This document shows positions 34,189 to 42,199 of a stretch of 64,000 nt of DNA, piece by piece. A model generated the notes under the pieces. That model saw only the letters and a list, made by a program, of their open reading frames with translations, made no database searches and had not been told where the DNA came from. A program made the position numbers and the translations under genes. The stretch's first letter is position 1, and each line of letters starts with the position of its first letter. The stretch is from Candidatus Eiseniibacteriota bacterium (GTDB taxonomy: Bacteria; Eisenbacteria; RBG-16-71-46), in contig JBBRLX010000012.1 in NCBI GenBank assembly GCA_038231135.1, positions 1 through 64,000 on the forward strand, written 5' to 3'.

Positions 34189-34644
34189 TCACACCCGATG
34201 CATCAGCTGCCGAATCGCCCCCAGGTGATACGCGAGGTGCGCGATCGCGCCCATGCCGGCGCCTTCGTTGACGAACGTCTGCTCCGGCAGCGCCCGCATC
34301 ACTCTCAGGAATTCGATCCGCCCCGCTTCCAGCTCGCGCTGCAGTGCCGCCCATTCCTCGTCGTTGACCTGTTGCGGCGAGAAACTTCCGGGCCAGTCGC
34401 GGGGTCCGCGCACGCCCTGCACCCATTCGGCGCCCACGCGCAGGTGGAAACTCATGTGACGCGCGTGGCCGGCAATGCTGGGATGGCTGTCGAACGACCG
34501 CGAGGCCTGCGCGGCGGTGAGCGAGCGCAGTGTGCTCCGTACGCCCGAGGAGTGATCCAGGTACCGCGTGCCTTCACCGGGGCGCCCGCCGTCGAACGTC
34601 TCCCGGATCAATTCCTCCATCTCGGCGAATACGGCCACGTACAT
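34189..34644 (-). CDS. DinB/YfiT superfamily protein
   Basis: SIAGHARH and HLAYHLGAIRQ metal-binding His pattern; GAGG RBS. Confidence 0.8.
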   Translation of the reverse strand: MYVAVFAEMEELIRETFDGGRPGEGTRYLDHSSGVRSTLRSLTAAQASRSFDSHPSIAGHARHMSFHLRVGAEWVQGVRGPRDWPGSFSPQQVNDEEWAALQRELEAGRIEFLRVMRALPEQTFVNEGAGMGAIAHLAYHLGAIRQLMHRV

Positions 34645-34658
34645 GGGTTACCTCACAA

Positions 34659-37600
34659 TCAGAATTCCACCCGCACTTCCGCGAGAGCGTTGCGCGTGGC
34701 GGCTGGGATGAACTGCGGGGCGAGGTTCCCCGCCGCATCGTAGTCCATGTAGCCGCCGGTTTCGTAGCGGCGGTCGAACGCATTGAACATCCGCAACGTA
34801 AATTCCACGCGCGCGCCGTTGACCCGCATGCCGTACCCGCCGTTCAGGTCGAGCACGGAATGCGGCGCGATGCTCGCCGCGTCGGTCGCGGTGTTGTCGA
34901 GGAACATGCGGCCGATGCAGCGCCCATCCGCCCCCAAGCGTACTCCGTGGCTCGTCAAGGCTATGGAAAGATTGCCCAACGCGGCGGGAAAGAAGCCGAT
35001 CGTGTTGCCGTCGTAGCGGACCTCGTCGGCGGCGGTGGTGCCGTAGCGCTCCCGGTACTCCACGAAATGGTTGTCGGACAGGGTTGCGTTGGCGTTCACG
35101 GCCAGCGAGATGCCGCCCGCCAGCGCGTGTTGCCCTCGGGCCGCCAGCTCCACGCCCTGGTGCACGGAGCGGGCGGCGTTGCCGAGAATCGGATAGCCGA
35201 GGTCGGTGTCGAACTGCCCCGCGTACACGAGCTCGTCGCGGAACACCATGCGGAACAGGTTGACGGTAAGCGCGGCGCCGGCCGTTTGCCACGCGCCGCC
35301 GAGCTCCCAGTCCTGCACGTGCTCCGGGTGTACGAGCGGAACACGGTACGACTGCCGCAGCGGATCGTGCTGGGCATACAGCGGCACGTTGCCGACGCCC
35401 TCGCCGTCGTACAGATCGCGCAGCGCGGGTTCACGCGCGGCGCTCGACCACGCGGCGAACGCGCTCACGCGCGGCGTTGGGCTCCAGGTCACGCCGAGGC
35501 GCGGCAGCGCGAAGTCGTAGGTCTGATCGAACCGCACACCGTCGAAGCGATCGTCGCGCATCGAGTAGCGCTGATGCCGCCACGCGAGGTCGCCGGTGAC
35601 GCGCACGTCGCTCCGCGCGTTCCATTCCTCGCGAACGTAGGCGCCCGCCGCGAGCGTGCGCGGATGGAAGTCGTAATAGGTGAGGTCGGCCTCGGTCCCG
35701 GGTGGCAGCCCGTTGCCCGATACCACCTGCCCGAAGTGGCGCCCGTCGTGCGCGCGCAACTCGCCGCCCAGCGTGAGTGCCCCGCCCGCGTGCTCCAGCC
35801 GCACGCGCGGCACCCAGCCGTAGTGCTGGTTCTGCACAGTGCGGCGCCGCACGATGTCGGTGCGTTCCAGCAGTCGGCGGCCCTGCGCGTCGGTGACGTA
35901 GGCGCCGGTCGAATCGCGCGCGAAGTAGTCCCCGGGATGTGCAGTGGTGTCGGCGGTGAACCATGGCGCCAGCCGGTAGCCCGCCAGGTCCTGGCCGAAA
36001 CGCTGCTCGTCGTAGTAGCCGCGACCGTCGAACCAGAACAGCGTCTGTGTGAACGCGACCCGGTCGCGCGGCGACCACGAGTGGATCAGCTCGTAGTGCG
36101 GCTCGAAGAAGTGATCGCGCTCGCCGGCGTAGCCGAGCGGATTGAACCTGCGGTCGTCCGACGCGTTACCGGTGAGGCCGCCGTCGAGGTCTTCGCGCGG
36201 GATGCCGAGGTAGGCGAGGTGGGTCTCCTCGGGGCCGCCGTAGAGATTCATGCGCAGCGACTGCCGGCCCTGGAGCCGGCGCACGGACACGGCGTACGAC
36301 CACAGGCGCGTGTCGGACTGGTCGCGATAACCGTTCGTCTCGATACGCGAATAGCGGGCATAGGTGCTCCAGCCGTGCGCGAGCGGGCCCGAGTTCATCT
36401 CGAGCATCAGCCGCCGCGTGTCGTAGGACCCGCCGGACACGCTCGCGGTCATGGCGGGCGTATCCGACATGGGCGCCGTGTCGAGGTTCACGCTGCCGCC
36501 GACCGACGCGGCACCGTACAGCGACGAGCCGACGCCGCGCTGGAGCTGCACCTCGGCGGTCGACGCCAGCAGGTCGGGATGATCGATCCAGTACACCTCG
36601 TGCGACTCGGGGTCGTTGAGCGGCACGCCGTTGATGAGCACGCTGATGCGGCGCTGCGGGAAGCCGCGGATCGAGAGATAGGAGTAGCCGATGCCGTTGC
36701 CGGCATCGGAATAGGCGTAGGCGCCGGGCAGCATCGCGAGCGCCATCGGCGTGTCCTGGCCCCAGTTCGCCGACTTGAGCGCCGCGCGATCGAGCGTGGT
36801 GCGCGCGATCGGCGCCTGCGCGTCGGCGCGCGCGGTGTTCACCACCACCTCGGGCAGCGTGACCACGTGCGACAACGTGTCCGAGGCTGCCGCGCCGCCG
36901 CCCGCGACTGCCGGTGACGTGGAGTCCGCCGCCGCTCGGCTCGCCATGGACGGTGACGCGGAGTCGGCGGCGCGTGCGATGGCGAGCGCCCCGCTCAACG
37001 GTGTCGCGGCCAGCGCGAACGCCACCGCCGCGAGTGCCAGCGGTGCGCCCGACTCCGCGCCCCCGCCGCGACGGCGCTTGTTCACCGCCCAGCCCGCGGC
37101 GAACATCGCGACCGACGCCGCGAGCCCGGGGTAGATCGGCTCCATCCCCAACGGGTACGCCTGCTGCGGATGGAGGTGCTTCGCTACGACCCACGCCAGC
37201 GCGGTCGCGAACGGCACCAGCATCGTGGCGAGCGCCCACGCGCCGCCGCGGCTGCCCACTCCCAGCAGCGCCGAGGCCACCGGCACGAGCAGCGTCGGCG
37301 TGACGACCGACCCGATGTCGTGCCACAGGTCGATCACGCTATGGTTCATCAGCGCCAGACCGGTCGCGAACACGGTCGAGATCGCGAGCCCCAGGCGCGA
37401 GTAGAACGGCACGCGCGAATCGTCGGGGTCGCGGCGCAGGCGCCAGATGAAATCGCGGCCGATCGTGGTCGCAGCGATGAAACCGTAGGAATCGATCGTG
37501 CTCATCACCGTCGCGATCATGCCGAGATAGAAGATCCCCAGCGCCACGTGCGGCAGAGCGACGCGTGCCAGCTCCGGGAACGCATACACCGGGTCCTCGA

Positions 37601-38456
37601 GATGCGGCAGCAGGGCGCGCGCGTACAGGCCGCACGTCGTGGTCATGAAGTCGAACAGCGCCCACCACGCGATCGACCACAGCACGCCGTCGCGCGCCAC
37701 ACGCGGATCGCGCGCGGCGTAGGCGCGCTGCCAGAACCCGGGATCGACGAGCGTCGACAGCGCGATGAAGTACCACACGAAGATCGCCTGCGGCGGGTTG
37801 CCGCCGTTCCAGGTGAAATGCGAGGCGGGCAGTGCACCCGGCGTGAACGGCAACAGCCCGTGACGCGCGACGAGGAACGCCAGCATCATGGCGAAGCCGA
37901 GGAACATCAGCGCGAACTGCACCTGGTCGGTGAACACCACGGTGCGCAGCCCGCCCTTGTCGATGTAGAACATCGACAGCCCCGCAGCCATCACGATGCA
38001 CGGCGCCAGCGCCCAGCCGGTCATCGCCGAGAACAGCGTGCCCAGCACGAGCACGTATGCCGCCGGCGCCGACGACACGAATACCGTGAACGCGCCGAAC
38101 AGCGCGGCGCCGCGCCCGTAGCGGCGGTCGAGCAGGTCGGGCAGCGTGTAGAGCGACGCCACGCGCGCGCGCCGCGCGAACAGCAGCGCGAACAGCAGCG
38201 CACCCACGTAGTACGGCACGCCGAACACGATCCAGTTCGCCACGCCGTAGCGCCACGAATACTCGCCGACGCCCAGGATCCCGCCGTACCACGTGGCCAC
38301 GAGCGTGGCGACGAACGCCGGCAGCGTGACTGCGCGGCCTGCCACCATGTAGTCGAGCGTTCCCGCCCGGCGTCCGCGACCGCGCCACCACACCACGCCG
38401 AGGAACGCGAAATACGCGGCGACCAGACCCCAGTCGAGCATGCTGTTGCTGAACAT
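34659..38456 (-). CDS. Fusion of sodium:solute symporter (SSS; residues ~1-457) and TonB-dependent receptor (residues ~497-1265); probable thiamine/precursor uptake
   Basis: SSS: DYMVAGR, ATWYGG, YTLPDLL..RYG, GGLRTVVFTD, WQRAYAA, MSTIDS. TBDR: TonB box TLPEVVV, plug 'GYSYLSIRGF..RI.VLINGVPLND', 'QRGVGSS..GA..VGGSVN', C-terminal VRVEF. No stop between the two parts. Confidence 0.85.
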   Translation of the reverse strand: MFSNSMLDWGLVAAYFAFLGVVWWRGRGRRAGTLDYMVAGRAVTLPAFVATLVATWYGGILGVGEYSWRYGVANWIVFGVPYYVGALLFALLFARRARVASLYTLPDLLDRRYGRGAALFGAFTVFVSSAPAAYVLVLGTLFSAMTGWALAPCIVMAAGLSMFYIDKGGLRTVVFTDQVQFALMFLGFAMMLAFLVARHGLLPFTPGALPASHFTWNGGNPPQAIFVWYFIALSTLVDPGFWQRAYAARDPRVARDGVLWSIAWWALFDFMTTTCGLYARALLPHLEDPVYAFPELARVALPHVALGIFYLGMIATVMSTIDSYGFIAATTIGRDFIWRLRRDPDDSRVPFYSRLGLAISTVFATGLALMNHSVIDLWHDIGSVVTPTLLVPVASALLGVGSRGGAWALATMLVPFATALAWVVAKHLHPQQAYPLGMEPIYPGLAASVAMFAAGWAVNKRRRGGGAESGAPLALAAVAFALAATPLSGALAIARAADSASPSMASRAAADSTSPAVAGGGAAASDTLSHVVTLPEVVVNTARADAQAPIARTTLDRAALKSANWGQDTPMALAMLPGAYAYSDAGNGIGYSYLSIRGFPQRRISVLINGVPLNDPESHEVYWIDHPDLLASTAEVQLQRGVGSSLYGAASVGGSVNLDTAPMSDTPAMTASVSGGSYDTRRLMLEMNSGPLAHGWSTYARYSRIETNGYRDQSDTRLWSYAVSVRRLQGRQSLRMNLYGGPEETHLAYLGIPREDLDGGLTGNASDDRRFNPLGYAGERDHFFEPHYELIHSWSPRDRVAFTQTLFWFDGRGYYDEQRFGQDLAGYRLAPWFTADTTAHPGDYFARDSTGAYVTDAQGRRLLERTDIVRRRTVQNQHYGWVPRVRLEHAGGALTLGGELRAHDGRHFGQVVSGNGLPPGTEADLTYYDFHPRTLAAGAYVREEWNARSDVRVTGDLAWRHQRYSMRDDRFDGVRFDQTYDFALPRLGVTWSPTPRVSAFAAWSSAAREPALRDLYDGEGVGNVPLYAQHDPLRQSYRVPLVHPEHVQDWELGGAWQTAGAALTVNLFRMVFRDELVYAGQFDTDLGYPILGNAARSVHQGVELAARGQHALAGGISLAVNANATLSDNHFVEYRERYGTTAADEVRYDGNTIGFFPAALGNLSIALTSHGVRLGADGRCIGRMFLDNTATDAASIAPHSVLDLNGGYGMRVNGARVEFTLRMFNAFDRRYETGGYMDYDAAGNLAPQFIPAATRNALAEVRVEF

Positions 38457-38596
38457 GAGCGATCCTTGCGGGAGCGTCTCGTGCGGGAGCGCCGAAGCTC
38501 GATCCGCGTGCCGCGGCGCGTGAGACGCGCCCGCAACGAGACGCCGTCCACGCAGGGACGGCATGAAAACACAGCGGAGAGCTCGTCGGTTTTCGC

Positions 38597-38676
38597 CGTT
38601 TCCCTACGCTGGCTTTATCCAGTTCAGGTTCGAAGGGTGTGCTCTCAGGCCGGCACTTCGCCGACCACCCCTAACG
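38597..38676 (-). ncRNA. TPP riboswitch (THI element)
   Basis: Minus strand: CGTTAGGGGTG...CTGAGA..CACCCTTCGAACCTGAACTGGATAAAGCCAGCGTAGGGAAACG, with P1 CGTT/AACG; 140 nt upstream of the transporter start. Confidence 0.95.
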
Positions 38677-38791
38677 ACGCGTGTTCGCCGTGGAGGCGAA
38701 CGGGCGGCAGCATGCGCTCACGGAGGGATGTGGCGCAAGTCGGCGCGGGATCATCATTGCCGCCGAGGCCCCCGTCGCCTACGGTCCCGCA

Positions 38792-40395: not shown

Positions 40396-40700
40396 CGATG
40401 CTCGGCCGGCACAGGGTAGCCGGCCGTGGTTCAGGCTCCGCGACTCCCCCTTGACGCCCGGAACCCCTCCCACACCTTAGGCTACGGATCGAGCGCTCCC
40501 GACGGATGAGCGATCGATTCGACAGCAGACGCCCTTGTACCGCGCCGCTTCCGGGCGTAACGTCCGGCCGCCGCGTCTCGGTACGGGCCGCCGTGCGCCT
40601 CGCGTTACGAGGCCGGACACCGTCGCCAGGCGCCGGCGGGCTCGTCCAATCGCCCGCCCCGCACGTAGATCCATTGAACATGAGCGGCAACGAGGTTCAT

Positions 40701-41258
40701 GTGGCCCAGCAAGAACTGGACTTCCAGTGCCTGCAACGCACGCAGGCCGGAGACAGCCGGTCGTTGAGCGAGCTCTACGACCGGTATACGCCACTGCTAT
40801 ACCCGGTGGCGCTCCGGATCCTGCGCAGCCCGGCGGATGCCGAGGATGCGGTGCAGGATGCTTGGCTGCAGGTGTGGAAGCGGTCGGCGAGCTACGACCC
40901 GCGGCGCGGAACCGTCGCGGCCTGGCTGCTCACCGTGGTTCGCACCCGGGCGCTCGATCGATATCGCAGCATGGCATCGCGCAATCGAGCCGAGTCCCGC
41001 GTGGACCCGGAGCCGGTGACTCCCCCTGAAGATCCGACGAGTCAGGCGAGCCAGGTGCAGTTGAGTGCACGGGTTCGATCCGCCATGGCGTCGCTGGCTC
41101 CCCAGCAGCGCCAGGTGCTCGAAATCGCCTACTTCGAAGGGCTGTCGCAGAGCGAGATCGCGGAACGATTGAGCGCGCCGCTCGGCACGGTGAAATCGTG
41201 GACCCGGCAGGGCCTGATGCGCCTGCGGGAGCTGCTGCCTCAGGAGGAGTGGGTGTGA
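40701..41258 (+). CDS. ECF sigma factor (SigK-like); alternative start 40680
   Basis: LYDRY, DAEDAVQDAWLQVW, WLLTVVRTRALD, YFEGLSQSEIA..L..PLGTVKS. Confidence 0.92.
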   Translation: MAQQELDFQCLQRTQAGDSRSLSELYDRYTPLLYPVALRILRSPADAEDAVQDAWLQVWKRSASYDPRRGTVAAWLLTVVRTRALDRYRSMASRNRAESRVDPEPVTPPEDPTSQASQVQLSARVRSAMASLAPQQRQVLEIAYFEGLSQSEIAERLSAPLGTVKSWTRQGLMRLRELLPQEEWV

Positions 41259-42199
41259 GCGACCATCGTCCGGAATACATCGACCTGTGCGCCGCCTGGG
41301 CGCTGGGCTGCCTCGATCAGGGCGACGTGGTCCTGCTCGACGAGCACCTGGCGCAGGGTTGCGCCGAGTGCGGGACGGCGATGGCCGAGTTCTCCGCCGC
41401 CACCGTGCTGGTCGCCGCGTCGGCGCAGCGCGCGCCCGCGTCACCCGCACTTCGCGAACGCGTGATGGCGGCGGCCGTGCAGGCGGCCGGGCCCGCCGCC
41501 ATCGCGGCCGCCGCCATCGCTCCGGTCGCCGGGGCGGCGACGCCGGCCGCGCGACCGGGAGTGGCGCCGGGTTCCGCGCCGCGTGCGGCGCCCCCCGTGA
41601 CCGGCGGCGGCGCGACTGCCGGCGGGCGCGATGGTGCTCGCGACGCCGGCCCGGCGCGGGTGATCGAATTCCGGCAGCGCCCGGCGTGGACGATGTGGGT
41701 GCCGCTGGCCGCGGCGGCGGCGCTCGCGATCGCCTCGGGCGTGCTGTGGATGCGCGTCCACAAGCTCGATTCCGACCTGGCGGCGAGCAACACGGAGATC
41801 GCGCAGTTGCAGCGAACGGCCGAAGAGGGCGACAAGTGGCTGGCGGTGCTGCACTCGGCCGACGCGCGCGTGTCGGTACTCGAGCCGACGACCGACGGCG
41901 ACGCGCGCCTGCGTGCCCGCGCCACCTATGACCCGGCCACGAAGCGGGCCGTGATCGTATTCGAGAACTTCACGAAGCCGACGAATCGCGACTACCAGTT
42001 GTGGGTGATCCGTGACGGCGCGCCGGCGAGCCTCGGCGTCGTGCACGCCGACGACCAGGGCCGCGCGGTGCTGGAGCTCGAAGGTGTCGGCGATTCGTTC
42101 GCGCTGAGCGCGTTCGCCGTATCGCTCGAGCCCGAGGGCGGCTCTCCGAATCCCACGCCGTCCGGACCCGTCGTGATGCTCGGGAAGCTGAGCGGATGA
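41255..42199 (+). CDS. Anti-sigma factor, RskA family
   Basis: N-terminal HLAQGCAEC zinc motif, single TM, 'DYQLW', 'FAVSLEPEGGS..P'; GTGA overlap with the sigma gene. Confidence 0.88.
   Translation: MSDHRPEYIDLCAAWALGCLDQGDVVLLDEHLAQGCAECGTAMAEFSAATVLVAASAQRAPASPALRERVMAAAVQAAGPAAIAAAAIAPVAGAATPAARPGVAPGSAPRAAPPVTGGGATAGGRDGARDAGPARVIEFRQRPAWTMWVPLAAAAALAIASGVLWMRVHKLDSDLAASNTEIAQLQRTAEEGDKWLAVLHSADARVSVLEPTTDGDARLRARATYDPATKRAVIVFENFTKPTNRDYQLWVIRDGAPASLGVVHADDQGRAVLELEGVGDSFALSAFAVSLEPEGGSPNPTPSGPVVMLGKLSG

Follow-up and report, generated by a model that had tools for sequence, protein, structure and literature searches.

Within a 64,000-nucleotide stretch of a Candidatus Eiseniibacteriota genome (contig JBBRLX010000012.1, positions 1 to 64,000; the stretch is referred to as the window and the genome as G000), a single reading frame joins a sodium:solute symporter (SSS) of the inner membrane to a TonB-dependent receptor of the outer membrane, downstream of a thiamine diphosphate (TPP) riboswitch. 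The frame (34659..38456, reverse strand, as are all features of the fused gene) encodes a product of 1265 amino acids plus stop, P0001. From its sequence, we consider it probable that this product is a polyprotein that signal peptidase I would separate into a symporter of the inner membrane and a receptor folded by the machinery for beta-barrel assembly (BAM), with topology, cleavage and substrate all predicted. The same join seems to have originated repeatedly within a single group of uncultured bacteria, which suggests that cells may be able to produce an outer-membrane barrel at the end of an inner-membrane chain and to release it afterwards by cleavage.

The riboswitch aptamer (38584..38682, reverse strand) was identified by cmscan as RF00059 (66.7 bits; gathering score 54.3) and was the sole Rfam match in the window. 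It is separated by 127 bases from the ATG at 38456, from which the 1265-codon frame runs without any internal stop. In this DNA of 70% GC, the leader is predicted to fold over the Shine-Dalgarno (SD) sequence, a tentative result; there were no promoter or terminator calls near the riboswitch. Residues 1-458 (37083..38456) constitute the symporter. The Pfam SSF profile (PF00474) matched residues 36-349 (E 7.6e-24, 84.8 bits, cut-off 22.8), and TIGR00813 scored 98.5 bits, under its cut-off of 184. An AlphaFold model of residues 1-560, built from an alignment of 48 sequences, had good confidence up to about residue 465, with pLDDT values over 85 for most of residues 1-460. On our reading it shows thirteen membrane helices; a further helix at 471-499 is of low confidence, and the chain is disordered after that. 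The best Foldseek matches of the model were the SLC5 transporters SGLT2 and CHT1 (E about 1e-14), and the SSF profile together with an SLC5 fold of 13-14 helices places the protein in the SSS/SLC5 family. Helix count and basic residues indicate a C-terminus that is probably cytoplasmic.

The receptor half contains a motif, LPEVVVNTA (residues 534-542, 36831..36857), whose position is conserved in relatives and which resembles the consensus of a TonB box, a Plug domain (residues 547-654, 36495..36818; PF07715, E 2.1e-12) and the beta-barrel (34662..36185; PF00593 at residues 758-1218, E 2.1e-29), which ends in EVRVEF. A C-terminal Phe terminates all fused proteins, and the genome encodes TonB. 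No match to the receptor was found among PDB sequences at E 1e-5. The signal peptide is not located at an N-terminus but at 459-496 of the fused chain. A preliminary description made from the DNA letters alone had proposed a TPP riboswitch ahead of one frame holding a complete symporter and then a complete receptor, and both claims were confirmed by the profile searches.

A join of this kind could stem from an assembly or sequencing error, as the genes are split in most relatives and a single-base change suffices at their ATGA junctions: the fused locus L155 differs from the split L002 by one extra spacer base and, being known from one contig, may itself be such a case. However, in each of two runs, X1 (depth 10.9) and X2 (depth 28.5), one Logan contig covers 34600-38750 without a mismatch or a gap, so that the indel considered in the preliminary description was seen in neither assembly. 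Both runs belong to one study, perhaps the source of this genome, and thus verify the assembly and not an independent occurrence; runs X3 and X5 yielded only partial divergent pieces, none across the junction. The GTGA at 37085-37082, whose TGA an indel would have had to bring into the symporter frame to refute the join, does exist. Its GTG encodes V458, the final codon of helix 13, and the region aligns in frame with split relatives (e.g., L009, which reads GRAV and then KKSEATR before its stop), leaving no place for an upstream indel. In addition, the G000 junction contains no remnant of SD, ATG and TGA that one indel could restore, and the clusters of P0002, P0004, P0008 and P0011 each hold additional fused proteins of full length that come from other records. 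The artefact explanation is largely refuted by these results, and we regard it as hardly credible.

The region between the two halves has the anatomy of a Sec signal peptide. The basic residues NKRRR (459-463, 37068..37082) are followed by a hydrophobic (h-) region, L473-A484, by Pro486 and by candidate signal peptidase I sites (36969..37040; hydropathy 2.58, four A-x-A sites). Across ten fused proteins, helix 13 is followed by 2-4 net positive charges, the mean hydropathy of the h-region is 2.55 compared to 2.40 for the signal peptides of split receptors (n=39), and a strict A-x-A motif occurs in 8/10 as against 31/39; in the remaining two the signal ends in GRA/Q and TWA/Q. Judged by these features, the linker is the receptor's own signal peptide, with the basic tail of the symporter, of a kind also present in split relatives, putatively doubling as its n-region. 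In G000, cleavage would most likely occur at A494-R-A496/A497. As in an FbcH-like polyprotein, a single frame thus carries an internal signal with n-, h- and c-regions after a presumably cytoplasmic C-terminal tail, which supports the processed polyprotein that the preliminary description had offered as one of two options.

Its other option, an uncleaved transporter tethered across the periplasm in the manner of the Dma anti-sigma factors, was not supported. A single polypeptide residing in both membranes has a precedent in Dma1 (PMC10927553), and the longest fused spacer between hydrophobic stretch and TonB-box region, 46 residues, belongs to G000 itself. Dma1, however, relies on a long disordered region, and a long disordered periplasm-spanning linker free of cleavage sites was not found here. 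Spacers in the ten fused proteins measure 15-46 residues (median 21.5) and those of split receptors 8-73 (median 20), so that no lengthening has accompanied fusion; P0007 and P0008 have spacers of 15 residues, and the A-x-A sites are retained in fused forms. The periplasm is roughly 15-25 nm wide, for which an extended chain of about 5 nm is too short. An envelope-spanning tether appears unlikely because every fused form keeps the receptor signal peptide and a short spacer, and we assign the uncleaved transporter a very slight probability.

Of the 206 genomes examined from the phylum (Ca. Eisenbacteria), 133 have the symporter, which is fused to a receptor in 3 of them. Five of 138 symporter matches lay in frames of more than 1000 amino acids, and three were accepted as fusions (G000, G006 and G015, representing three different genera). 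The 1262-amino-acid frame of G149 was dropped as a frameshift-ridden split locus, and that of G171 (1220 amino acids) was dropped with its receptor located upstream in another frame. One unpublished genome, G026, enters only the tallies of symporter distribution, ThiE/thiamine pyrophosphokinase (TPK)/ThiL, riboswitches and receptor copies, and no specific claim rests on it. Among 61 classified loci, 44 have the symporter-receptor order, 3 fused and 41 split, and 33 of the split loci overlap by 4 bases as ATGA or GTGA. In the other 17 the receptor is not downstream, being upstream in those inspected, and none is fused; joined in the receptor-first order, a fusion would bury the C-terminal signal of the barrel. 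The receptor precedes the symporter in L026, L027, L050, L055-L062 and L064-L069 from other families of the phylum, and no fusion in that order was seen among them.

In further scans, one of genomes identified 1 fused locus among 66 with a junction (78 fetched) and a metagenome scan 3 among 73 (80 fetched), both overlapping with the earlier locus sets. A protein collection contributed 8 full-length and 2 partial fusions, of which P0003 and P0007 are identical to the products of the G015 and G006 frames, respectively; including L155, the distinct fused lineages number 11. The fusion recurs in other genomes and metagenomes, a point that the preliminary description had thought worth checking. Its refuting condition, that all close homologues are two separate genes, is true of most of them, and this does not refute the finding. 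More distant fusions were not found: only P0007 exceeded 900 amino acids among the best 150 of 8049 matches in a 50% library, and a profile search of longer proteins, which is weak evidence, returned only the same 10 fused proteins. Two near-identical records, P0009 and P0172 (916 amino acids), show an in-frame join of a related SSS symporter with an alpha/beta hydrolase, made through a signal that resembles a lipobox (LLALAIG/C), which suggests that the symporter's cytoplasmic C-terminus may tolerate any exported neighbour. In P0012 (700 amino acids) a distant SSS protein is joined to a VTT/DedA domain.

The history of the join was reconstructed on two quick trees. An LG+G4 tree of 112 rows, calculated from both halves without the linker and restricted to loci with both halves, required 8 changes for its 12 fused rows, 6 of them forced by strongly supported branches, and a 64-row symporter tree that included P0009 gave 8 and 6 as well. 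Such counts are blind to gain versus loss, and repeated gain appears to be the simpler reading because split forms are in the large majority. G015, P0004 and P0005 formed a fused clade in both trees (SH-aLRT 96 and 91), with symporters 76-79% and receptors 71-73% identical. Around G000, G001 of the same genus is split; L155, a near relative of G001, is fused by one extra base ahead of the ATGA and has SD and ATG intact; L153 and L154 retain SD and ATG and have lost the overlapping TGA; and in G000 itself SD, ATG and TGA are all lost. Judging from these junctions, the split form, L155, L153/L154 and G000 read as a series from a coupled gene pair to what would be an obligate polyprotein. The L153/L154 junction, of the P0002 type, also contains seven consecutive A in the tail of the symporter, immediately ahead of the SD and ATG kept there, a possible slippage site.

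The decay of the receptor start was assessed by anti-SD pairing. In-frame starts before the h-region reached -2.4 and -3.7 kcal/mol in G000, the values for G006 were -2.5 and -1.7 kcal/mol, and in G015 there is no ATG, GTG or TTG before the h-region. Split receptor starts showed a median of -8.0 kcal/mol (range -12.2 to -4.6, n=36), and in a larger split set the value was -8.1 kcal/mol (n=125), with 2.4% weaker than -4. By these predicted energies, the receptor's own ribosome-binding site is gone in G000, G006 and G015. A candidate independent receptor start is absent from G015, a weak GTG in G000, a weak ATG in G006 and strong in L153-L155.

The fused receptors have nevertheless been maintained, with 142 of 143 conserved receptor columns kept in G000 and 137-142 in eight fused forms. 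In all eight, identity of the receptor to split relatives was as predicted from the identity of the symporter (residual z -1.6 to +1.5). Pairwise dN/dS of the G000 receptor was 0.27-0.35 and that of two comparably distant split-split pairs 0.31 and 0.45, the values coming from simple counting and being GC-biased. The fused receptor is thus under purifying selection, and no second close receptor copy was found in G000, G006 or G015. It could still be argued that the fusion is real and the symporter works, with the receptor going to the wrong place and being broken down, a slightly deleterious condition that drift produces repeatedly, and the rarity of the fusion, scattered over the tree mostly as single tips, would be in line with this. 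Against it stand a dN/dS of about 0.3, the C-terminal Phe of every fused protein and the lack of any excess divergence in eight fused forms; moreover, the ribosome-binding site had time to decay and the receptor did not, and the fused clade persists across about 25% protein divergence. We therefore consider a degraded receptor improbable.

The genomic context points to a role in vitamin B1 supply. G000, G006 and G015 each possess one TPP riboswitch, located at the SSS-receptor locus. G000 encodes six transketolase-type TPP-enzyme domains and ThiL, and in this genome, which is 93% complete, no match above cut-off was obtained for ThiC, ThiE, ThiG, TPK, ThiK, PnuT or ThiB. ThiE and TPK were likewise found in none of the 24 other members of its family, whereas TPK occurs in 12/13 genomes of the neighbouring families f2 and f3. 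Across the family of G000 (f1, 25 genomes), ThiL is present in most genomes, and ThiE and TPK were not found. By gene content these genomes look like thiamine auxotrophs that would need thiamine monophosphate (TMP), TPP or an unrecognised thiamine kinase. The locus is probably the vitamin B1 supply of G000, which argues that both halves work. The cargo is likelier to be TMP or TPP, or else thiamine with an unrecognised kinase, because ThiL is present and no kinase was recognised. The preliminary description's uptake system for thiamine or a precursor thus holds as far as one gene, two membranes and TPP regulation are concerned, but the gene set points to phosphorylated thiamine rather than to a precursor.

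Several points weigh against the polyprotein interpretation. The signal anatomy was scored by our own hydropathy and motif script, and missing thiamine genes in a genome of this completeness mean not found. The junctions within the clade of G015, P0004 and P0005 cannot be aligned, so that its single origin is unproven, and the rarity of fusion (3/133 genomes) fits a tolerated change better than an adaptation. SD and ATG are kept in 2 of the 5 fused lineages with DNA, where separate receptor synthesis is still possible. Even in G000, the in-frame GTG at 37085 would yield a good N-terminal signal peptide, reading M-NKRRR, h-region and A-x-A, and its SD energy of -3.7 is close to the -4.7 of the symporter start. 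The receptor might accordingly be made mostly alone from this GTG or from the ATG at 37106, read-through yielding a by-product with a tail that is cleaved or broken down. The strong SD and ATG of L153, L154 and L155 and a Met at the old start position in P0008 and P0010 would agree with such a nested start. On the other hand, every one of the 36 split starts is stronger (at most -4.6), the GTG is accounted for as the codon that closes helix 13 and also occurs in the split L009, and G015 offers no start codon before the h-region. Ribosomes from the symporter ATG would read through in any case, so that the symporter would still need to be freed from its tail. A nested start is thus a minor but real possibility.

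According to the polyprotein model, low TPP would permit expression, as expected for this riboswitch family, and one ribosome would synthesize the whole 1265-residue chain. Sec/YidC would insert the 13 symporter helices, leaving the C-terminus in the cytoplasm, and the basic tail with the next hydrophobic stretch would serve as an internal signal by which the receptor is passed into the periplasm. A cut by signal peptidase I at an A-x-A near residue 496 would follow; G000 encodes two LepB homologues, BamA and TonB. The freed receptor would be delivered to BAM by its C-terminal Phe signal and work with TonB, and the symporter would stay behind in the inner membrane, where the used signal would form its 14th helix. 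Jointly, both may import thiamine, likelier as the monophosphate or diphosphate. Fusion would recur owing to the ATGA overlap of the ancestral genes: the stop is lost by a small shift of frame, sorting of the product is still correct, and the receptor's start may then decay. On balance, we favour the broader view that bacteria can routinely build a barrel of the 22-strand class as the C-terminal tail of a 13-helix transporter and release it by signal peptidase I. The whole path, from ATGA pair through read-through with the start kept to an obligate polyprotein with the start lost, would have been taken at least six times in what is seemingly the only vitamin route, with a symporter that maybe carries phosphorylated thiamine.

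Two neighbouring loci were noted in the window. A 151-amino-acid gene (34189-34644, reverse strand) begins 15 bases downstream of the fusion and has a weak match to mycothiol-S-transferase (DinB-like, E 0.007). It had no match among the 158 fetched loci and was left out of the system since it is not conserved beside the operon. A gene pair at 40506-42199 (forward strand), judged by a reading of the sequence, presumably encodes a sigma factor of the ECF type and, after it, an anti-sigma protein like RskA.

If cleavage is true, the biogenesis of an outer-membrane protein needs no N-terminal signal peptide, as an internal one after a polytopic protein suffices, and one translation event sets a 1:1 supply of the transporters of both membranes. 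Split forms, young fusions and forms without a receptor start constitute a natural matched series for testing and explain how such fusions arise. Caution is required as databases name fused proteins after one half only. A family with ThiL and with no thiamine kinase or pyrophosphokinase found also points to an SSS transporter for phosphorylated thiamine.

The closest counterparts are the split SSS and TonB-receptor operons of the same genus (G001/L002), which share riboswitch, gene order and signal peptide with G000 and encode proteins 76% and 71% identical. They consist of two genes with ATGA overlap and a strong SD, whereas G000 has one frame with neither stop nor SD. In FbcH, the cytochrome b-c1 precursor of Bradyrhizobium japonicum, a polytopic inner-membrane protein is similarly fused to a downstream exported protein. 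Thony-Meyer and colleagues reportedly found this precursor to be processed at a signal peptide within the chain. The two products of FbcH remain together as one complex of the inner membrane, whereas the second product of G000 must reach the outer membrane via BAM. A cytochrome b-c1 fusion is known in Bradyrhizobiaceae (PMC4986455). Dma1 likewise combines an inner-membrane helix and an outer-membrane barrel in a single polypeptide but is detected at full length, its tether being long and disordered and its barrel built of eight strands (PMC10927553), in contrast to the cleavable-looking signal and short spacer of G000. For thiamine, Bacteroides has a TPP-riboswitch-controlled TonB-dependent transporter of the outer membrane, OMthi (BT2390), with the inner-membrane partner PnuT and Tnr3 (PMC5613172). 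G000 shares the upstream TPP riboswitch of OMthi/Omr1 receptors, but in Bacteroides the genes are separate, the partner is PnuT and not an SSS protein, and a pyrophosphokinase is present. A further study counts the TPP-riboswitch-linked sodium:solute symporter ThiV and the TonB-type omr1 among putative transporters of B1 or pyrimidine (PMC10881298); they are stand-alone genes in different taxa, and ThiV accompanies thiE/thiG pyrimidine salvage, for which the family of G000 has no matches. Both thiamine comparisons are by description and not by orthology. In the literature covered, which is incomplete and excludes most subscription journals, we found no SSS-receptor fusion and no polyprotein of an inner-membrane transporter and a barrel. 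The parts are individually known from these systems; new are the SSS partner, the many separate origins with visible intermediates, and a probably essential pathway.

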